From Candidatus Thorarchaeota archaeon (lineage in GTDB: Archaea; Asgardarchaeota; Thorarchaeia; Thorarchaeales; Thorarchaeaceae), in assembly GCA_003345545.1 (NCBI GenBank), contig PRDH01000012.1, positions 1 to 64,000 on the forward strand: a DNA stretch of 64,000 bases, in the 5' to 3' direction. Below, one piece after another: positions 5,151 through 15,086 of this stretch. Made by a program: the position numbers and the translations under genes. The first letter of the stretch is position 1, and each line of letters starts with the position of its first letter. A model generated the notes under the pieces. It was given only the letters and a program-made list of their open reading frames with translations. It searched no databases and was not told where the DNA came from.

Positions 5151-5493
5151 TGGCTACGAATCTCTCCATACTCCTCACTTCTGATTCACTACATTCATGA
5201 CCTATCTCTTACATTATAGTGTGAGTGAAACTCAACTGCAAGAAACCCATCTTTTTGGTCGCACACGAATCTTGTCAAGTAGTCTTAAGCATTGAGGATT
5301 TGTCACATAGAACAGGTTTCGCTGAAAGAACAGCCCGGTCATTAGTTTTATCTGAATATCCCTTACACTTCAGAATTAAGCACTGAGTTTACCCTTTAAC
5401 TCAACAGTGGAAGGGTGTTCAGTTCTAGTTCTCAGCTGTAAGAATTGTAGAAAGAAAAAAAGAATGTGTGCCATAGCATATGAAGGAATAGAA

Positions 5494-6522
5494 ATGCTGG
5501 ACGAATATGGTGGAGTGTTGCTCAGATGTGATGAGCTACAGTATCATTCATTACCAAGTAGGGAACAGTTGACTAAACAGCTGGTTAAGAATCTAGAAGC
5601 CGCATTGAGAGAACATGCTGTTTCATTCAATGAAATTCAACCAGCATGCCAGTTTATTTACATTAAAACTACCAATATATCAGAAGTCACTAGAGTTAGT
5701 TCTGGAGTCTTTGGTGTTTCATCAGTATCTCCAGTTATTGTTTCTTCTACAATTGACGCTGATTCTCTCCCTTCAAATCACGCATTCTACAAAGAGGAAT
5801 GTGACAACAAAGTGTTCCTGTCAACAGAGAAAGTTGATGGAGTGGGTGGCTTACCTACCGGGTCTCAAGGAAGAGTAGTGTGCACGATTTCTGGAGGTCT
5901 TGATTCTCCTATTGCTGCCTACAAGATGATGAAGCGGGGATGTGTCCCAGTCTTTCTTCATTTCGATAATGTGCCATATGGGGATGAGTCAACACGAAAC
6001 CTGGCAATCAGACAAGCAAAAAGACTCTCTGAATATATCCACGGTCATGAAATCAAGATGTATGTTGTGCCACATGGCGATGATCTGACTGAAGTGCTTA
6101 GGCATGCACCCCGAAAAATGACATGTATCTTCTGTAGAAGAAATATGTATAGATTAGCTCAGGAAGTAGCCCTTCTAGAAAATGCAGATGCGATTGTGAC
6201 TGGTGAGATCATTGGAGAACAGGCTTCACAGACAACTCGGAATCTTCTAGCAGAGAATAGCGCGATATCTGAGATTCCCATCATGAGACCATGCATTGGA
6301 GATGATAAGGTTGAAGTTGAAAAGATGGCAATGAAGATTCGAACATACGACTTTGCACAAGAGGCTGTTTCGTGCTGCTCTCTGCCGCCAAAGTATCCTA
6401 CTGTATGCTCCAAGCTCGACATCATTGATCCCATAGAAGAGAAGATGAACATGGACTGGAAAGCCTCAGAAATATCTGAAGCTGAGGTCATTATCCTGAA
6501 GGACGGTAATGCAAATGACTGA
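5494..6522 (+). CDS. thiI: tRNA 4-thiouridine synthase ThiI-like protein, apparently lacking most of the THUMP domain
   Basis: GVGGLPTGSQG, PP-loop SGGLDS, CIFCRR (archaeal Fe-S CxxC), TGEIIGEQASQT; start placed at ATG 5494. Confidence 0.85.
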   Translation: MLDEYGGVLLRCDELQYHSLPSREQLTKQLVKNLEAALREHAVSFNEIQPACQFIYIKTTNISEVTRVSSGVFGVSSVSPVIVSSTIDADSLPSNHAFYKEECDNKVFLSTEKVDGVGGLPTGSQGRVVCTISGGLDSPIAAYKMMKRGCVPVFLHFDNVPYGDESTRNLAIRQAKRLSEYIHGHEIKMYVVPHGDDLTEVLRHAPRKMTCIFCRRNMYRLAQEVALLENADAIVTGEIIGEQASQTTRNLLAENSAISEIPIMRPCIGDDKVEVEKMAMKIRTYDFAQEAVSCCSLPPKYPTVCSKLDIIDPIEEKMNMDWKASEISEAEVIILKDGNAND

Positions 6523-6820
6523 CCCTTTCATCATCAAGCTCTGTTCTGGCAAAGTTGCCTTTGAGGTCAAATCCAAGACTAGAGTCAAACTTGATTTGAC
6601 ATCGTTCAGTGAGGAATTGGCTACCCTAATGAAAATGAAGATTCGAGTCAGTCTTCCAGTGATTCTGATTCTTGAGGGTGATGATGGTCGTTCTATCACA
6701 ATCTATCCATCAGGTCGACTGCTTCTCCGCAAGTTTCCTACTGAAGAGAGTGTGAGGCAGGCTACTCTGCTCCTCTCACCAAAGCTCTATTCTTCTGTAA
6801 GCAATGGTTCATCAAGATAA
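6509..6820 (+). CDS. Small hypothetical protein overlapping thiI
   Basis: 103 aa; beta-rich ITIYPSGRLLL motif reminiscent of TBP-like folds; overlaps the thiI stop. Confidence 0.65.
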   Translation: MQMTDPFIIKLCSGKVAFEVKSKTRVKLDLTSFSEELATLMKMKIRVSLPVILILEGDDGRSITIYPSGRLLLRKFPTEESVRQATLLLSPKLYSSVSNGSSR

Positions 6821-7462: not shown

Positions 7463-8224
7463 TTGATCATGGAGCAATTCCTACTTGCCCTCTGCGGACT
7501 GCCTAGCTCTGGAAAGACCACTCTCGCACATGCAATCAGAGAAGCACTGGATGCCAATGTCACAATTGTGTCGAGTGATGACTGGCGTGACGCAGACTAC
7601 TACACAGATTGGCGACCCCAGAGAGAGCGATTGGTTCGGCAAGCCACTCTGGCAAAAGTAGACGAACTTCTCAGGCAGGGAAAGAGCGTGATCGATGATG
7701 ATACGAACTACTACGAGAGCATGCGTCATGAACTGTTCAAGATTGCTCTTGAGAGAGAGTGCATATTCGCCATTGCCCACGTGACCACGTCGTTAGAGGA
7801 TGCTATCTCATGGAATAGCAAGAGAGAGAGCACGGAAATCACTGAGGACATCATTAGGCGCATAGACGAACGGTTCGATCCGCCGGGAGGACGATATCTG
7901 TGGGACTATCCAGCGGCAGAGGTGGACATGGCAGGCCAGAACCTTGATTCAGCGGTCGCGAAGATACTCAAGATTCTTGATAGCCTCAAGATTGCAGAGG
8001 AGCAAGAACCGACAAGAATCACTGAGAGAACTGGTGAGATGATTGACAAGACCACAAGAGAGGCAGTCACAGAGTTTCTCGAAAAACATCCAGAACTGCG
8101 GGGAAATCGGGAGGTCTCAGATGTTCGCCGTAGTGTGCTCAAGAAGGCAATCGAGAGCAATTTGGACACGATAGCGGCGAGGAGAATGACACTGAAGCGA
8201 CTACGAGGACTTCTGGATAGATAG
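7463..8224 (+). CDS. pstK: L-seryl-tRNA(Sec) kinase (PSTK)
   Basis: P-loop GLPSSGKTT, DDTNYYESMR, RFDPPG..Y.WD; adjacent to tRNA-Sec. Confidence 0.9.
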   Translation: MIMEQFLLALCGLPSSGKTTLAHAIREALDANVTIVSSDDWRDADYYTDWRPQRERLVRQATLAKVDELLRQGKSVIDDDTNYYESMRHELFKIALERECIFAIAHVTTSLEDAISWNSKRESTEITEDIIRRIDERFDPPGGRYLWDYPAAEVDMAGQNLDSAVAKILKILDSLKIAEEQEPTRITERTGEMIDKTTREAVTEFLEKHPELRGNREVSDVRRSVLKKAIESNLDTIAARRMTLKRLRGLLDR

Positions 8225-8225
8225 A

Positions 8226-8316
8226 TGGCGGCCTTCTAAGAGAATCGAACTCTTATCGCTTGCACGATCATGGGTTTGAAGCCCACGGAGCCAGACCACT
8301 TGCTCTATAGAAGGCC
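8226..8316 (-). tRNA. selC: tRNA-Sec (anticodon UCA), 9/4 archaeal/eukaryotic fold, encoded CCA
   Basis: Reverse complement: GGCCTTCTA TA GAGCAAG TGGT CTGGCTC CGTGGG CTTCAAA CCCATG ATCG TGCAAG CGAT A AGAG TTCGATT CTCT TAGAAGGCC GCCA; 9-bp acceptor, long D stem, 6-bp anticodon stem, variable arm, 4-bp T stem, G discriminator. Confidence 0.97.
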
Positions 8317-8360
8317 ACAAGTGAGCACAAGAAATAAGCTACTGCGCTGCTTTTAAGAAT

Positions 8361-9014
8361 CTAGAGATAACGGCTGATGATCTCCTGGGTCTCGCGTTTC
8401 CATTCAACGCTCTTCTTTGCCAGTTCAGAGGCCACAGAGCCGGGCAATGTTTTATCGCGGGGAAGTGATTCTATCTGCGACAACCAAGCGGAGGTAGTAA
8501 GAGTGATGGGGTGCACACCGTTCTCACCCTCAAGGGCCTTGATGATCATTTCTCTTCCGTGAGCTACCTGGTAATAGATGTTGGTCAAGGGGGATCTGTT
8601 CAGAATCTCGCGGACCATCCGGTCCCAGCATGTTTTGGCAGTCAGAGCTCTCCGAAGCCTTCCGCGGTCCTCTTCTGGTAAGGATTGGTACTTGTCTATT
8701 GCATCCTTCAACGATTCGATGACGCCACCTACATACCCTGCCAGAGCTATTTCATCCATGCCCAACGTGTCGATCTCGACCGAGGACTTGGATCCATCCA
8801 AGCGAATTATCGCCTGACCATTCTCACCCGCGATTTGAAGAGAGAAACGCGCCATCCCCTTGAAGTGTTTGCCTTCACCCTCGCTATACTCCTCAAGAAG
8901 AACGTTAGGTTTGGAGGCAATTGCATACCAAGCAATACGAAACACTGCTGCAGCCTCATCAGAGCTGAATTTCAATGTTCGGGAGACTTTTGCCTGTTCA
9001 TCTGCTGCGGTCAT
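8361..9014 (-). CDS. Uncharacterised protein inside the Sec cluster
   Basis: 217-aa ORF with SD GAGGGAGG, 29 nt after sepsecS and 44 nt before tRNA-Sec. Confidence 0.85.
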   Translation of the reverse strand: MTAADEQAKVSRTLKFSSDEAAAVFRIAWYAIASKPNVLLEEYSEGEGKHFKGMARFSLQIAGENGQAIIRLDGSKSSVEIDTLGMDEIALAGYVGGVIESLKDAIDKYQSLPEEDRGRLRRALTAKTCWDRMVREILNRSPLTNIYYQVAHGREMIIKALEGENGVHPITLTTSAWLSQIESLPRDKTLPGSVASELAKKSVEWKRETQEIISRYL

Positions 9015-9043
9015 GTATCTTGCCCTCCCTCAGGGACGCTTAA

Positions 9044-10363
9044 CTATCTGCCAGCTTCCTTATCAAGTTTGGTTGTCGCAGTCTCGACGTCTTCATGGCT
9101 CGCTCCGATTGCAGCATTCATCACGATGTAACTGTGAGGATAGTTCTCGACAGAGGACCCAAAGGCTCCAGCCTCGACCGTTCTTGGCCCTGTGACCCTA
9201 GCATTGTACAGCCGAGCCCCAATCTCTTGGACATCAAGACCATTCAAGGTCATTGCCCATGCCACAGGATTCTTGACATCAAGAACCCGTTGACCATGTG
9301 TTTCAGCAATTGCTGCAAGTCGATCCCTAAGAAATGCTAGGTTCTCTAGTTGTTGTTGCTGCAGGTCCCGATACCTGTCAAGACCAAGAGAGAGAAGAGC
9401 GGATAGTGTTTGGACAATGGGCGCCGCTGTTGCTCTACCCGCATAGGTATCTGCTGTCCAGTCAATGACAGCAGGGTTCGGCGATACAATGATAGAACCA
9501 CCAACTGGTGCCATGAAGTTCTTGTCACTGCTCTGAACAATGGCGTCAACACGACCAGCATCGACTGCAGACTTTAGCTGATTCATTATGTCTTGAGACT
9601 GCACCCCGTAGGCATTATTGACCACGAGGGGGACATCATGGTCTGCACATAGTCGTGCAACAGATTTCACGGGGTCAGACTCTCGTGGTGGAAAGAACGT
9701 AGTTGTACAGAGAACAGCACAGGACTTGGTCTTCGGGATTAGTGTCTCTAATTCACCGAGGTTGACACGGACTGCATCATCTTCAATGAGTGTCGATACT
9801 GGTACCTCTTTCAGACCAGTGAGGGAGATTCCTCGTCTAGGGGAGATGTGGTCAATTCGAGGATAGAGTACTCTCTGAATATGCAGTTCTCTTCGCAGGG
9901 CACCCAGTGCGAGGGCAAGTGTCATTCCTGTAGAGAGAGGGGTGACAATACCTGCCTTCATATTACTCAGACCTAATTTCCGAATGGCATCAAGGGCAAC
10001 AGTGTTGGCAACCTGCTGCATCAGGGATGCCCCGGCAGCCTTTGGCTGGGGAGCGTTAAGCTGACCACTTCTCCCTATGCCATGATTGAATCCAGCTGCA
10101 AGAGCGCCGATGAAGGGCGATGCTATACGACCCTCACGTTCTCCAACACGAGCGGCCTCTGGGTCCTTGTCCGTGTCCATGGATGAGAGAATCTGGACCA
10201 TCAGTTCGAGCTGCGCATCCGTCAATGACTTATCAGGGAATACTCTTCTGTTCAAGACGTCTCGAATCGGAGCCATCATGGAGTCGATGGTCGTGCGACC
10301 TCGACGTGCGATGCTCTCAGGAATCGTCTTGTCCAGTATCCTGTCAAACTCATCACGGTCCAA
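9044..10363 (-). CDS. spcS: O-phosphoseryl-tRNA(Sec) selenium transferase (SepSecS)
   Basis: GEREGR, HGIGRSG..APQPKAAG, NNAYG, QSSDKNF (PLP lysine), YAGRA. Confidence 0.95.
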   Translation of the reverse strand: MDRDEFDRILDKTIPESIARRGRTTIDSMMAPIRDVLNRRVFPDKSLTDAQLELMVQILSSMDTDKDPEAARVGEREGRIASPFIGALAAGFNHGIGRSGQLNAPQPKAAGASLMQQVANTVALDAIRKLGLSNMKAGIVTPLSTGMTLALALGALRRELHIQRVLYPRIDHISPRRGISLTGLKEVPVSTLIEDDAVRVNLGELETLIPKTKSCAVLCTTTFFPPRESDPVKSVARLCADHDVPLVVNNAYGVQSQDIMNQLKSAVDAGRVDAIVQSSDKNFMAPVGGSIIVSPNPAVIDWTADTYAGRATAAPIVQTLSALLSLGLDRYRDLQQQQLENLAFLRDRLAAIAETHGQRVLDVKNPVAWAMTLNGLDVQEIGARLYNARVTGPRTVEAGAFGSSVENYPHSYIVMNAAIGASHEDVETATTKLDKEAGR

Positions 10364-11750
10364 AGCTGTATGTCTCCTCTACAAACCTCTCATAGTCCAC
10401 TTCTTCATTCTTCTCGATAGGAGTTTCGAACTCTACGGAAACAACGCCTCTCGTACCGAATGTTGCCCTAATAATACCGTCTACGCCGCCTCTTGTTCTC
10501 ACCCGCAGTCCTATTAGCGATTCAGCCGCCTTCTTGCTAGAGGCAAGTCCCTCAACAAGGACATCATGGCCGCGAACCCTCTGGACCTTGCCAGTGCGAA
10601 CCTTTCTTCGCTGGAGCATGATACTGTCAGGAATCTCGGTGATGATGCCAGATCCGATAATCCGCATCTGAGTAGGAGGCAAGTCCGTTCGGACGAGTAA
10701 GACTCTAGCGTGTGCATATACTGCCACTGGCTTTTGAAGGGCAAGAGCTGCATCGAATTCCGGCTCTTCGACTGAATCCACCACAACCCTGCGACCTCCC
10801 ACCACCTGAAAGGGGATGATTTGCCCTGTCGTTATCGGCATACCCAACGCTGCACTCACAACGAGATTCTTTGTGATTCGACCGTTGTACAGTGGATTGA
10901 CATGGATATGCACATGAACGCAGTCAGAGGTTGGAATGCTCTTGGGAGAACAGAGGTAGTCGCCCCGACTGATTAGGGTGGAATCCACCTCAGGAATGTT
11001 GATTCCAACTCGGTCACCTGCAGATGCCTGAGACCTGTTATGGCTAAAGGTCTCGATTGAGCGGACTCTACTGCTGATGCCGAGAGGCGCAATCTCAACG
11101 AGGGCGCCCTCTGCAAGTCTTCCCCGAACAATTGTGCCCGTTGCAACAGTGCCATGACCTTTCACTGGAAATGCATGATCAATGGGTATCAAGAGGGAAC
11201 CATTCACATCACGCACTCTGGGAACGAGAACTCTGAGAAGTGCCTTGCGAAGTCGATCTATGCCTTCATTCTTGTGAGCTGAAACTCGGACATACTCGAC
11301 CTTTTTGAATCCGGCATCAGCAACAATCTTCCTCATTTTGGCTTCGATCTGAACAATCTGGTCGTTTGCAGCCGCGTCGATTTTGGTGATGGCTACAACT
11401 AACGAATCGATGCCCATTGAAGAGAGGACAACCAAATGCTCTCCAGTCTGAATCTTGGGGCCCTCGTCTGCAGCTACTGCCAGAATTGCAGTATCAATGA
11501 TACTGGCCCCAGCAACCACACTCCTGATGAGATCGGCATGTCCCGGGGAATCAACGAGGGTCACCAGATAGTTCTCAAGGACAAACATGGTGAATCCAAG
11601 ATCAATCGTTATCCCACGTTCTTGCGCTTGGGGATGCCTATCGAGTCCTGCAGTAGATACCTGTTCGCTCAACACCCGTGCGAGCGCTGTTTTTCCATGG
11701 TCAATATGACCCATCAGACCAACGTGAACAGGGATTAGAGAGTCCATCAT
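10353..11750 (-). CDS. selB: Selenocysteine-specific elongation factor, archaeal SelB/EFSec
   Basis: GHIDHGKT, RGITIDLGF, DSPGH, TKID, IDHAFPVKGHGTV; short archaeal-type C-terminal domain; overlaps sepsecS. Confidence 0.95.
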   Translation of the reverse strand: MMDSLIPVHVGLMGHIDHGKTALARVLSEQVSTAGLDRHPQAQERGITIDLGFTMFVLENYLVTLVDSPGHADLIRSVVAGASIIDTAILAVAADEGPKIQTGEHLVVLSSMGIDSLVVAITKIDAAANDQIVQIEAKMRKIVADAGFKKVEYVRVSAHKNEGIDRLRKALLRVLVPRVRDVNGSLLIPIDHAFPVKGHGTVATGTIVRGRLAEGALVEIAPLGISSRVRSIETFSHNRSQASAGDRVGINIPEVDSTLISRGDYLCSPKSIPTSDCVHVHIHVNPLYNGRITKNLVVSAALGMPITTGQIIPFQVVGGRRVVVDSVEEPEFDAALALQKPVAVYAHARVLLVRTDLPPTQMRIIGSGIITEIPDSIMLQRRKVRTGKVQRVRGHDVLVEGLASSKKAAESLIGLRVRTRGGVDGIIRATFGTRGVVSVEFETPIEKNEEVDYERFVEETYSFGP

Positions 11751-11848
11751 ATCTCTCGGCACACAACAGTGGGAAGCAGACATAAACTCTTGCTCACAAC
11801 AAATCGAACTCAGAGTAGTTTATGTGGTAGAATGCAGGAGAGATAAGT

Positions 11849-12253
11849 ATGGTATCTAGGTCTCTTGAGAAGATGATGCTGATAGCAGTTGGACTCTCCA
11901 CAGCAGTCATCATTGGAGTGCCTGTTCTACTCTATGCTATCAATACAATGTCGTATACCACGCACCTCCAGGATGCACAGATGGCTGCTGAAGACATATT
12001 CGAAGCTGCAAATCGCATAGATAGTGGGGAACTCATGAACCTGACAATCCAAGTCCATATTCCCACAGGGGTGTCAATGAGTGCGAATGGCAGCTTATTG
12101 ACGATTATTCTGCTCATAGACAGCCAGCAGACTAAGTGGTCTGAGACCTTCGACCATCAGGTGTACATCATCCCTCCGACTGCTGAAGGTCACTACAACA
12201 TCATGTTCACTATTGTCTCCAATGTGATATACATTACACACTCGTTGGTCTAG
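11849..12253 (+). CDS. Membrane-anchored pilin-like protein
   Basis: N-terminal RSLEKMMLIAVGL hydrophobic helix resembling a class III signal peptide, then a beta-rich domain. Confidence 0.5.
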   Translation: MVSRSLEKMMLIAVGLSTAVIIGVPVLLYAINTMSYTTHLQDAQMAAEDIFEAANRIDSGELMNLTIQVHIPTGVSMSANGSLLTIILLIDSQQTKWSETFDHQVYIIPPTAEGHYNIMFTIVSNVIYITHSLV

Positions 12254-12363
12254 ATATAGCAGACACCATTAACTTACTATACTGGCTGTTTCAATTCAGC
12301 ATAACGTTTTTAATGACGGCACAAGTTGTCGCCGGTGCCAGCACCCAAGCGAGGAACGAATCG

Positions 12364-13413
12364 ATGGCTGAAGATACCGAGAGGCTTGATGAAACCGCTG
12401 AGGAAGAGGAACTTCCTGAGTCAGAAGGGCAGACTGAAGAACCAGTCGAGAAAGAAGAAAAGAGTGAGAGAGAGCCCAGACATAATCCGCTTGGGATCAT
12501 TCTCAACGTACGTATGCTTCGCAGGGTCGTACAGATTCTCTTTCTTCTGGGCATCAACGCCTACGTATTCACTGCATGGTTTGGTGCTGAGTACATCACG
12601 GCCTTCTGGACCACCATAAGAAACTATCTTCCCAGCATACCGATCCTGGCACCCCTAGAAGCGCCTTTTGCTGTCATCTCGGGCTCATTCGACACAATGC
12701 AGCGGACCTTCACATCTGCATTCTTTCCATTCTTCACGATCGGAGCGATGATCATCATCCTGATTTTCGTTGGCCGAGCACCATGTGCGTGGGCATGCCC
12801 GATTGGGACTATACAGGACTTTGCAACATTGCCGAAGCGCGAAAAAGTGAGACCGACAGCAGCTACTGAGATAGAAATGCGGAAAGGCAAGCTCTACATC
12901 TTTGTGGTCGTCGCTGGACTTGCAGTCTGGCTAGGAGCTTCCAGAGCTGTTGGCGGAGAATTAGTGCTTGAAACCATGCTTGGCGCATTTGCCAATGATG
13001 CATTCAATCCTCTGAATCCAGCATACATTCTCTTCAAGGTCATTCCAGAGCAACTGTGGCCAACAAGCCTAAGCACGCTCTGGTACTTCACTCAGTGGGG
13101 ATTCGCACTACTGCAACTCGCCTTTGTCATCTTCGTCTTTGCGGTCTCTATATGGGTACCAAGATGGTTCTGTAGATGGATTTGCCCAGCAGGGTGGTTG
13201 TACAGCGTCTTCTCTAGAGACGCACTCATTGGAATTGGCAGAAATCCAGCACGATGCACTCCCGATGTATGCAATGTCTGTGAAATGGTCTGTCCAATGA
13301 ACATACGAATCAGAAAATATCCGTATAAACACATGCACAGTCCAGATTGTATCATGTGTCTCGAATGCAAGAGCCACTGCCCCAACGATGCAATCGTCAT
13401 TCGCTTCTCATAG
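12364..13413 (+). CDS. NapH/MauN-type polytopic membrane 4Fe-4S ferredoxin protein
   Basis: GRAPCAWACPIG, RWFCRWICPAG and two C-terminal ferredoxin motifs; acidic N-terminus. Confidence 0.88.
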   Translation: MAEDTERLDETAEEEELPESEGQTEEPVEKEEKSEREPRHNPLGIILNVRMLRRVVQILFLLGINAYVFTAWFGAEYITAFWTTIRNYLPSIPILAPLEAPFAVISGSFDTMQRTFTSAFFPFFTIGAMIIILIFVGRAPCAWACPIGTIQDFATLPKREKVRPTAATEIEMRKGKLYIFVVVAGLAVWLGASRAVGGELVLETMLGAFANDAFNPLNPAYILFKVIPEQLWPTSLSTLWYFTQWGFALLQLAFVIFVFAVSIWVPRWFCRWICPAGWLYSVFSRDALIGIGRNPARCTPDVCNVCEMVCPMNIRIRKYPYKHMHSPDCIMCLECKSHCPNDAIVIRFS

Positions 13414-13822: not shown

Positions 13823-14047
13823 CTAATGGCCCCAACGGAGTCGCTCGGGTTTTGTATCCTTCTTGAAAGCCTTCTTCACAATCTTCCAGTGATCAGCACA
13901 GACATGGACCTTCCTTGCTTGAGCGTCCTTGACCTTCAGACCTGAGTTGGCGATGCTCTCCATGATTCTTACTGTTGCAAAGGATCTCTTCGACTCCTTT
14001 GAACAACCGATGATACTGCATACCTTTGTAGACGACACCTGGGACAC
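13823..14047 (-). CDS. Small zinc-finger protein
   Basis: CSIIGC...HVCADH followed by a basic tail. Confidence 0.7.
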   Translation of the reverse strand: MSQVSSTKVCSIIGCSKESKRSFATVRIMESIANSGLKVKDAQARKVHVCADHWKIVKKAFKKDTKPERLRWGH

Positions 14048-14093: not shown

Positions 14094-15086
14094 TCATTCA
14101 TGGTCATTCTTCGGCGTGAGCACTGGACCTTTTGTGAAGTCGAATATTGTACGTTCTTCCCCATCCATGGAGAGCCTAACTACTCGGGATTCATCAACAA
14201 CACCGATTATGCATGCTGATAGAGCGTGGTTCTCAGCGATGCGTCCAACTTGAGTTAGATGCTCCTTTGCGGTGGCGACGAGGAAGCCCAGTGAAATGTA
14301 CATTCGAAGCCAATCCTCTAGCGGAATCTCAGAAGGTTTTGACATCCGAATCTCATCAAGATCGAGAGTACCCCCTTTCCCTGAGTACTCCAGCATCATC
14401 ACTGCTGTTCCCACTATACCAGCCACGGAAACATCCTTTGACGCGGACAAGATATGATGTTCTGCAAGATCATTCATGACTGACAGCCTACGCACAATCT
14501 CATCAGATGGCCTGTCAGTCACCGAGTCCCACCCGAGTCTGTAGTGTGCACCTCTTTGTCCGGCTCGGTCAAAAAGCAGAACGAGCATGTCTCCTACCAT
14601 GGCGCCTCCTGCAGTCAGCAGGTCATCCTTCTGAACGGTGCCTGTCGCGGAGCCCACAACATAGGTCGACGATGATCGGGGGTTGGTATGGCCGCGAACA
14701 ATGGGTATCTTGAAAGTATGAGAGCCAGCAATAAGACCGTCGAGTATCTTGTTTCCGATTTCCTGGTTGGAATAGGATAATGCGACCGCAAAGGAAGTCG
14801 GAGTGCCTCCCGCCGCATAGATATCCATGACATTGGCCAAGACGGCATTGAATCCTGCGGCTCGAGGGTGACCAAGGCAGAGGTCTTCAACAATGGCATC
14901 TGTGGTAAGGAGAACAATGTCATTGGAGCTAGTAACAATCGCAGCGGAATCCTCTCCGAGAGCGTGCGGAGTATTGCCCTTAAAAGATCTCAATCGCAGC
15001 TTATCAATTATGGATGGAAGGACGAATTTCCGTGAGATACCATCAAAGCTGAGCAGCAGATGTACAATATCATCAAGGCGGGCCAA
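14094..15086 (-). CDS. AIR synthase/PurM-superfamily protein (methanogenesis marker 2-like), not canonical SelD
   Basis: GEDSAAI, LLTTD, ANVMDIYAAGG, RGHT, KDVSVAGIVGT; lacks the N-terminal Cys/Sec-x-x-Lys of SelD. Confidence 0.8.
   Translation of the reverse strand: MARLDDIVHLLLSFDGISRKFVLPSIIDKLRLRSFKGNTPHALGEDSAAIVTSSNDIVLLTTDAIVEDLCLGHPRAAGFNAVLANVMDIYAAGGTPTSFAVALSYSNQEIGNKILDGLIAGSHTFKIPIVRGHTNPRSSSTYVVGSATGTVQKDDLLTAGGAMVGDMLVLLFDRAGQRGAHYRLGWDSVTDRPSDEIVRRLSVMNDLAEHHILSASKDVSVAGIVGTAVMMLEYSGKGGTLDLDEIRMSKPSEIPLEDWLRMYISLGFLVATAKEHLTQVGRIAENHALSACIIGVVDESRVVRLSMDGEERTIFDFTKGPVLTPKNDHE

Follow-up and report, generated by a model that had tools for sequence, protein, structure and literature searches.

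The window analyzed here is a stretch of 64,000 nucleotides (nt) from a Candidatus Thorarchaeota archaeon (contig PRDH01000012.1, positions 1 to 64,000), and the gene in question, which we call ORF217 after its open reading frame (ORF) of 217 amino acids (aa), starts with ATG on the minus strand and lies among the genes for selenocysteine (Sec). A sequence-only reading had given the order selB-sepSecS-ORF217-tRNA-Sec, with sepSecS 29 nt upstream on the same strand, tRNA-Sec 44 nt downstream and pstk convergent, and this was correct in every point (Table 1). The SelB of the window matched GTP_EFTU, domain 2, aSelB_III and eEFSec RIFT, and no winged-helix domain for binding the Sec insertion sequence (SECIS) was found among its domain matches. 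Judging from the 29-nt gap and the Shine-Dalgarno-like box within it, ORF217 probably shares a transcript with sepSecS and is coupled to it in translation. The public sequencing runs listed were of wetland metagenome DNA only, with no RNA among them. Because a TTAAAA box stands in the 44-nt gap, tRNA-Sec probably has a candidate promoter of its own.

Table 1. Positions of ORF217, its predicted domains and the surrounding features in the window
Feature	Position	Strand	Basis	Remark
ORF217, member of NF045535 'Sel_Asgard'	8361..9014	-	ORF call, NCBIfam match, homologue search	
ORF217, predicted N-terminal domain, residues 1-111, TBP-like beta-alpha-beta4-alpha	8682..9014	-	model, VIA, hhalign	
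ORF217, predicted C-terminal four-helix bundle, residues 112-217, Vps28-C-like	8364..8681	-	model, VIA, alignment	
SepSecS	9044..10363	-	PF05889 E 2.8e-111; TIGR03531 446 bits	conserved upstream neighbour of ORF217
Archaeal SelB/EFSec	10353..11783	-	TIGR00475 match	overlaps sepSecS by 11 nt
tRNA-Sec (UCA)	8226..8316	-	ARAGORN	sole tRNA of the window
PSTK	7463..8224	+	KTI12/TIGR03574	convergent, ends 1 nt from tRNA-Sec
GAGGGAGGG ribosome-binding-like (Shine-Dalgarno-like) box	9023..9031	-	read from sequence	8 nt before the ORF217 ATG, within the 29-nt gap
TTAAAA box	8351..8356	-	read from sequence	about 37 nt before the tRNA-Sec 5' end, within the 44-nt gap
o134 and NapH-like Fer4_5 ferredoxin	11849..13413	+		stay beside ORF217 in Thorarchaeia genomes without Sec genes
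74-aa basic C2CH zinc-finger protein	13823..14047	-		part of the same ancestral gene block

ORF217 is a real gene, since the homologue search returned 302 homologues, the family hidden Markov model (HMM) matched 281 of 400 Asgard species genomes, and conservation extends over the full length of the protein. SepSecS (TIGR03531) was matched in 243 of the 400, and none of 14 control genomes, Methanocaldococcus (Methanococcales) among them, matched the family HMM. At 50% identity the family forms 63 clusters among 1.84 billion proteins, comprising full-length forms, forms with the C-terminal domain only and four fused forms, and all of its named members are from Asgard archaea. That no family could be recognized, as the sequence-only reading had stated, was true of Pfam, which gave no family for ORF217 and nothing consistent for the 26 family members scanned at E values up to 5, but not of NCBIfam. 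There, ORF217 scored 220.7 bits (cut-off, 132) against the equivalog model NF045535.1 'Sel_Asgard, putative selenocysteine system protein', with residues 19-214 lying end to end on profile positions 3-195 of 195, and at the family level we found no difference between the two. Some GenBank relatives of ORF217 already carry the name 'putative selenocysteine system protein'.

The family and its Sec neighborhood are thereby already known. An Asgard-only hypothetical protein, often near secS, efSec and pstk, has been reported as a possible link to the Sec pathway (Huang, Xiao & Zhang 2024, ISME J, PMC11227280); it shares with ORF217 both the Asgard-only range and the position beside these genes. 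The protein described there (e.g., MBD3157761.1) very probably belongs to the ORF217 family, although this example accession was not among the family cluster members listed.

Linkage to Sec genes was counted in the best 30 ORF217-family loci, with flanks of 1.5 kb. In 28 of these, sepSecS lay directly upstream on the same strand, and one of the two exceptions was cut by a contig end. The uncut exception (L027; G251:C56) had no sepSecS within 1.4 kb upstream of its Lokiarchaeia-type gene, and elsewhere in its genome only a partial SepSecS match was present (E 7.5e-36). The same gene order was seen in seven GTDB families (labelled f and a number), namely f1 (Thorarchaeia), f4, f16, f17 (Helarchaeota), f21, f22 (Lokiarchaeia) and f23, as well as in loci L037-L041; in about 100 genomes for which both matches were listed, the ORF followed sepSecS in the same orientation at a distance of 90-725 nt. 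Family f21 includes single-contig genomes, of 4.4 and 6.0 Mb, with both genes. In f15, the ORF217 homologue was found 0.8 kb upstream of selB. Of 18 loci in Thorarchaeia, 15 had tRNA-Sec after the ORF, and pstk was convergent. The Lokiarchaeia showed the sepSecS-ORF pair isolated between an aldo-keto reductase gene and genes for small coiled-coil proteins. Synteny across lineages thus bore out the conserved linkage to Sec genes.

Profiling the family against Sec genes across Asgard archaea confirmed this linkage but spoke against a dedicated Sec role, as the gene is also kept where Sec is absent. It was present in 19 of 19 Hermodarchaeia, 4 of 4 Odinarchaeia, 2 of 3 genomes of f28, 3 of 4 of f6 and the single genome of f2, a family of the order to which the window's genome belongs, and none of these lineages had a SepSecS match. 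Neither PSTK nor tRNA-Sec was found in the representative Sec-negative genomes, which were 91-98% complete. An apparent tRNA-Sec of f28 (RF01852, 50.3 bits), the sole Rfam match over threshold, was rejected as a tRNA-Leu (UAA). The neighbors of the ORF217 homologues in these lineages were unrelated to Sec.

Losses of Sec were also seen close to the window's own genome. Five genomes of its family (G370, G353, G324, G350, and G396; 84-93% complete, contigs of 16-258 kb) had no SepSecS, and all five kept the locus with the genes for TFB, ORF217, o134, Fer4_5, a helix-turn-helix (HTH) protein, the zinc finger, an AIR-synthase-like protein and a zinc ribbon. In each, the ORF was intact at 215-217 aa and no invariant residue was missing, whereas sepSecS, selB and pstk were either absent or reduced to frameshifted scraps, and ARAGORN found no tRNA-Sec in the five. 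Among the scars, two were spread over three frames, one made up of SepSecS residues 412-439 and SelB 13-124 and the other of SepSecS 383-437; a third example combined PSTK 3-59, SepSecS 318-439 and SelB 6-112. Collapsed Sec loci flanking an intact ORF217 homologue were located at L115 5351-5741, L117 5670-5832 and L118 3681-6192. Apparently, the 21st amino acid was lost several separate times within this one archaeal family, leaving a natural deletion series among the relatives of the window's genome, which, with the domain assignment given below, we consider the useful result of this work.

Constraint on ORF217 was not relaxed after the loss of Sec. At 64 columns that were at least 90% conserved among 18 Sec-positive Thorarchaeia proteins, the five Sec-negative proteins had 2, 2, 12, 4 and 4 differences, compared to 0-10 for Sec-positive proteins left out singly. 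We relied on these consensus columns because the synonymous substitution rate (dS) had reached saturation in almost every pair; just one Sec-positive/Sec-negative pair could be used, and its ratio of nonsynonymous to synonymous rates (dN/dS) was 0.07. The family is independent of the Sec trait, and the core job of ORF217 would not need Sec. The NCBIfam product name fares accordingly: NF045535 scored above its cut-off in Sec-negative Hermodarchaeia (157 bits), Odinarchaeia (143) and f28 (143.5), so the name 'selenocysteine system' is not borne out, and since the model also matches above its cut-off in the five Thorarchaeia genomes without SepSecS and is not confined to Sec-using genomes, the phyletic pattern suggests that the implied Sec role over-states what is known.

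The converse situation, Sec use without the gene, was found in f30 (Borrarchaeum/Sifarchaeum). All five genomes of this family, two of them 100% complete, had SepSecS, and none had an ORF217 match, even with the broader family profile. The large families f8, f10, f11 and f13 also lack the gene. Borrarchaeum and Sifarchaeum have been described as having eSECIS-like elements and large selenoproteomes (PMC11227280). In the Sec-using families f18 and f19, the ORF217 family was reduced to a protein unlinked to Sec genes, in which only the C-terminal bundle survives (121-144 aa, with the motif VYFALADSRE). The genes for it (L069 1480-1878, L070 1453-1818, and L071 1471-1905, all on the minus strand) lie between a ppsA-like (phosphoenolpyruvate-synthase-like) gene and the gene for ribosomal protein uL16.

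Neighbor clustering revealed an old gene block common to Thorarchaeia, f4, Hermodarchaeia and Odinarchaeia, with genes for DUF47, a tRNA-splicing endonuclease, a 105-aa protein, a 269-aa zinc-ribbon protein, the AIR-synthase-like protein, the 74-aa C2CH zinc finger and the NapH-like ferredoxin. The Sec genes sit inside this block in Thorarchaeia and f4, and where they are absent the ORF stays next to the zinc-finger gene. In Odinarchaeia, f28 and f6, the latter directly followed the ORF217 homologue in the same orientation; it was convergent with and adjacent to the homologue in 15 of 15 Hermodarchaeia loci, and within 5 kb of it in Thorarchaeia, f4, f16 and f23.

Alignment A1 of the family (26 sequences from Thorarchaeia, Lokiarchaeia and six other lineages, with 13-62% identity to ORF217) contained five invariant residues (F25, D131, R154, E155 and K206), with Y147 and L172 nearly so. 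Neither Cys nor His was conserved in A1, and a further alignment, A3, likewise had no conserved Cys; the lone Cys of the Thorarchaeia proteins, C129, is absent in other lineages. The Thorarchaeia members are acidic (isoelectric point 5.1-6.0, net charge -2 to -9, N-terminal domain -4 to -9) and the Lokiarchaeia members neutral to basic, so net charge is not conserved across the family, a pattern that poorly suits a conserved RNA-binding surface.

The AlphaFold2 model of ORF217 built on A1 had a predicted local distance difference test score (pLDDT) of 94.2 and a predicted template modelling score (pTM) of 0.90. It placed a beta-alpha-beta4-alpha arrangement (residues 8-111) before four long helices (114-216), upholding the guess, made by eye from the sequence, of an alpha/beta N-terminal and a helical C-terminal domain. 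D131, R154, E155, K206 and Y147 all fall in the predicted bundle. By VIA comparison, the N-terminal domain resembled TBP-like and helix-grip folds (1vjh, Z 11.0; Roco COR, 9.8; KA1, 9.6), and the platform of the AP-2 beta2 appendage (3h1z_A, Z 9.3) scored no better than these other folds. The C-terminal domain matched the C terminus of yeast Vps28 (2j9u_A; 93 of 94 residues, root mean square deviation 2.2) with a Z of 11.3, which ties with the bundles of CheA P1 and FbpA and lies below the Z of about 13 under which caution is due for helical bundles. Taken alone, then, the structural matches of the ORF217 model are generic. A Foldseek search of the PDB with the model gave nothing at E ≤ 0.001 (top match RnlA, E 8.4e-3, TM score 0.20), and when PDB sequences were searched with the family profile, the matches were at chance level only. 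A HEPN-like reading of the bundle was dropped, as it has no R-x4-6-H motif.

More specific information came from a group of large Asgard proteins. The family HMM also matched the last ~200 residues of Lokiarchaeia proteins of about 790 aa (E down to 9e-10), and hhalign of A1 against the C terminus of one of these, P0122, gave 97.3% probability (E 2e-11) across 200 columns that take in both domains, with the same topology of beta-alpha-beta4-alpha and bundle. Lokiarchaeia genes for proteins of this size were found at L051 4658-7030 (+), L053 3094-5499 (+) and L052 5700-7904 (-). The proteins are built of N-terminal zinc ribbons, four winged-helix repeats matching Pfam PCI, E3_UFM1_ligase (UFL1) and DDRGK, an appendage-like sandwich and platform, and a Vps28-C-like bundle. 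The C terminus of P0122 matched Pfam VPS28 at 28.8 bits (cut-off, 24.5), and its best four PDB sequence matches were all Vps28 C-terminal domains (E 0.008-0.09). In a model of its last 336 residues (pLDDT 85), sandwich and platform together resembled the alpha-adaptin appendage (1w80, Z 14.9, 209 residues aligned), the beta2 appendage (3h1z, Z 13.7) and the gamma-COP appendage (1r4x, Z 12.6), the platform by itself resembled that of AP-4 beta (2mj7, Z 12.8), and residues 242-334 resembled Vps28-C (2j9u, Z 12.9, 18% identity). A shape search of the ESM Atlas with ORF217 returned Asgard multidomain clusters only as nearest neighbors. P0122, P0123 and P0124 belong to a class that has been described before, in which Asgard multidomain proteins combine Vps28-C with an adaptin appendage and HTH/PCI domains (Makarova et al. 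2024, mBio, PMC10936438).

ORF217 is homologous to the C-terminal module of these proteins and, as judged from alignment and model, would be a free-standing platform plus Vps28-C-like module without the beta-sandwich. The adaptin appendages, as well as P0122, have this sandwich at the N-terminal side, whereas ORF217 begins with the platform-like domain; the zinc ribbons and the winged-helix/PCI array are likewise missing from it. [quoted passage not shown] It stands alone, linked to sepSecS and not to any ESCRT gene, and homologues are carried by Hermodarchaeia even though these have been reported to be without an ESCRT system (PMC10936438).

We favor, with a probability of roughly 0.55, the explanation that ORF217 is a Sec-independent protein-binding adaptor. 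It would be a small, non-enzymatic, Asgard-only protein in which a TBP-fold domain and a Vps28-C-like bundle of four helices are joined, and would represent the C-terminal module of the large appendage/Vps28-C proteins in a copy that stands on its own. By analogy with the eukaryotic trafficking domains, it would hold other proteins together, and its main client would not be a Sec component. Its place in the selB-sepSecS operon would be a legacy of the old gene order, and if it contributed to Sec synthesis at all, it would do so as an accessory rather than as a missing SECIS or tRNA-Sec decoding factor.

Several points weigh against this explanation. The Vps28-C likeness of the C-terminal domain is a transitive sequence link combined with a Z score that unrelated bundles equal, and the word adaptor is drawn from the predicted fold class. 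TBP-fold domains of other proteins can bind nucleic acids. Furthermore, the Lokiarchaeia pair has survived with the other Sec genes moved away and with unrelated flanks, which exceeds plain inherited synteny and therefore indicates some functional or expression coupling; the persistence of the pair in Lokiarchaeia and Thorarchaeia is the strongest argument for such coupling.

This coupling leads to the alternative that we take most seriously, while still considering it unlikely, namely that ORF217 is an accessory scaffold of Sec synthesis, which would sit on SepSecS (and perhaps PSTK or SelB), aid the hand-off of tRNA-Sec and have a second partner where Sec is absent. This explanation is in line with the sepSecS gene directly upstream of the ORF (28 of the best 30 loci, as well as seven families and L037-L041), with the close spacing in about 100 genomes for which both matches were listed, with the isolated Lokiarchaeia pair, with the Shine-Dalgarno-like box and the 29-nt gap, and with the adaptor-type predicted fold. 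The role would resemble that of SepCysE in the methanogen SepRS-SepCysS complex or of SECp43 in eukaryotes. SepCysE, from this transsulfursome, is likewise small, non-catalytic and encoded with a Sep-tRNA-dependent pyridoxal phosphate enzyme; however, it had no sequence or fold match in the ORF217 searches, and ORF217 persists without the Sep-tRNA pathway in Hermodarchaeia, f6 and f2. Against a scaffold stand the unchanged gene after Sec loss in five Thorarchaeia genomes, Hermodarchaeia, Odinarchaeia, f28, f6 and f2, its absence from Sec-using Borrarchaeum/Sifarchaeum, the unlinked C-terminal domain that is all that f18 and f19 keep, and the lack of any match in the Methanococcales control. 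A service to Sep-tRNA enzymes in general does not rescue it and was rejected, since SepRS was present only in Odinarchaeia and f28 and absent in Hermodarchaeia, f6 and f2. Co-folding of SepSecS (alignment A2) with ORF217 (A3) gave an ipSAE of 0.00 in both runs, a result that counts neither for nor against binding.

A further version would let the adaptor physically recruit SepSecS, or the hand-off of Sec-tRNA-Sec, to another partner in Sec-using Thorarchaeia, Lokiarchaeia and Helarchaeia and serve a second, Sec-independent client elsewhere. We regard this as distinctly doubtful; if true, domains of the eukaryotic trafficking/adaptor type would organize a translation-recoding pathway.

The zinc-finger gene offers a different partner. 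ORF217 and this 74-aa protein, as an RNA- or DNA-binding C2CH finger, could form a nucleic-acid-linked module for a process common to Sec-positive and Sec-negative Asgard archaea, in keeping with their adjacency on the same strand in Odinarchaeia, f28 and f6, their convergent arrangement in 15 of 15 Hermodarchaeia loci and their proximity in Thorarchaeia, f4, f16 and f23. The finger has invariant residues in the pattern C-x4-C...C-x2-H and a lysine-rich tail, and it matched no Pfam or NCBIfam family. As judged by language-model features only, look-alikes are widespread in archaea without ORF217 (Thermoproteota, Thermoplasmatota, and Bathyarchaeota), and in Hermodarchaeia the zinc-finger gene shares its orientation with that for the ferredoxin and not with ORF217. 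We consider a shared module of this kind improbable.

By what means SelB communicates with archaeal SECIS elements has long been in question. An earlier study found no SBP2 in Lokiarchaeota and left the SECIS reader open (Mariotti et al. 2016, PMC4989117). ORF217 was the obvious positional candidate in Asgard archaea, and the sequence-only reading had proposed it as a SECIS/tRNA-Sec adaptor. In that role, as an analogue of SBP2, it would bind tRNA-Sec or the eukaryote-like SECIS of Asgard archaea and bring SelB to the ribosome, an idea to which its place between sepSecS and tRNA-Sec and the nucleic-acid binding known for some TBP folds lend themselves. What ORF217 shares with SBP2 is, however, only this hypothetical niche of a factor encoded with the Sec machinery amid kink-turn-like SECIS elements. 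SBP2 has an L7Ae domain; ORF217 is not L7Ae-like, as had been noted from its sequence, and neither L7Ae (PF01248) nor another RNA-binding family was found by Pfam in the 26 members; the predicted topology of ORF217 is a different one, TBP-like plus four-helix bundle. The acidic Thorarchaeia proteins, the charge that is not conserved and the invariant residues placed in the helical bundle instead of on the sheet also disagree with such a role. Moreover, Borrarchaeum/Sifarchaeum decode their eSECIS-like elements without the protein, and the gene persists in genomes that have lost both SECIS and tRNA-Sec. Two of the outcomes that the sequence-only reading had named as refuting its proposal were seen: Sec-negative homologues retain all invariant residues, and the protein is predicted to fall into a known protein-interaction class, that of the adaptin-appendage platform/TBP and Vps28-C-like domains. 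In addition, Borrarchaeum/Sifarchaeum lack the gene. Because the gene outlives the Sec genes, is missing from Sec-using Borrarchaeum/Sifarchaeum and has a predicted protein-interaction build, a dedicated decoding role is unlikely, and the SBP2-like version of it very improbable. In view of survival after Sec loss, absence from Borrarchaeum/Sifarchaeum and predicted domains of the adaptin/ESCRT-I type, the archaeal SECIS reader should be sought elsewhere.

Finally, a selenium-binding or delivery factor that supplies selenide or selenophosphate to SelD or SepSecS, also proposed from the sequence, has only the position beside sepSecS in its favor and is most improbable, since no Cys is conserved (nor any Sec or His, the Thorarchaeia C129 being absent elsewhere), profile scans found no rhodanese, TusA, NifS or SelD-like family, and the gene is kept in Sec-negative genomes.

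Some neighbors of ORF217 in the window deserve mention in their own right. A ThiI-like PP-loop protein and a 103-aa ORF are encoded between TFB and pstk (5407-6820, plus strand). In the Thorarchaeia relatives that lost Sec, the ORF217 homologue lies immediately beside TFB and the stretch examined contained no ThiI match, so this pair seems to have been lost together with the Sec genes. The AIR-synthase-like protein (14094-15086, minus strand) was nearest to 'methanogenesis marker 2' (TIGR03267, 220 bits) and the sll0787 type. Its gene lies beside Sec clusters in Thorarchaeia, f4, f16, f18 and f19; with a selD score of no more than 42.8 bits, the protein was rejected as SelD, and Sec-negative Hermodarchaeia and f6 have it as well. 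Homologues of the NapH-like Fer4_5 membrane ferredoxin (12313-13413, plus strand) adjoin the ORF217 homologue in Hermodarchaeia and selB-sepSecS in f19, and in two Lokiarchaeia genomes they lie about 3 kb from the ~790-aa appendage/Vps28-C proteins.

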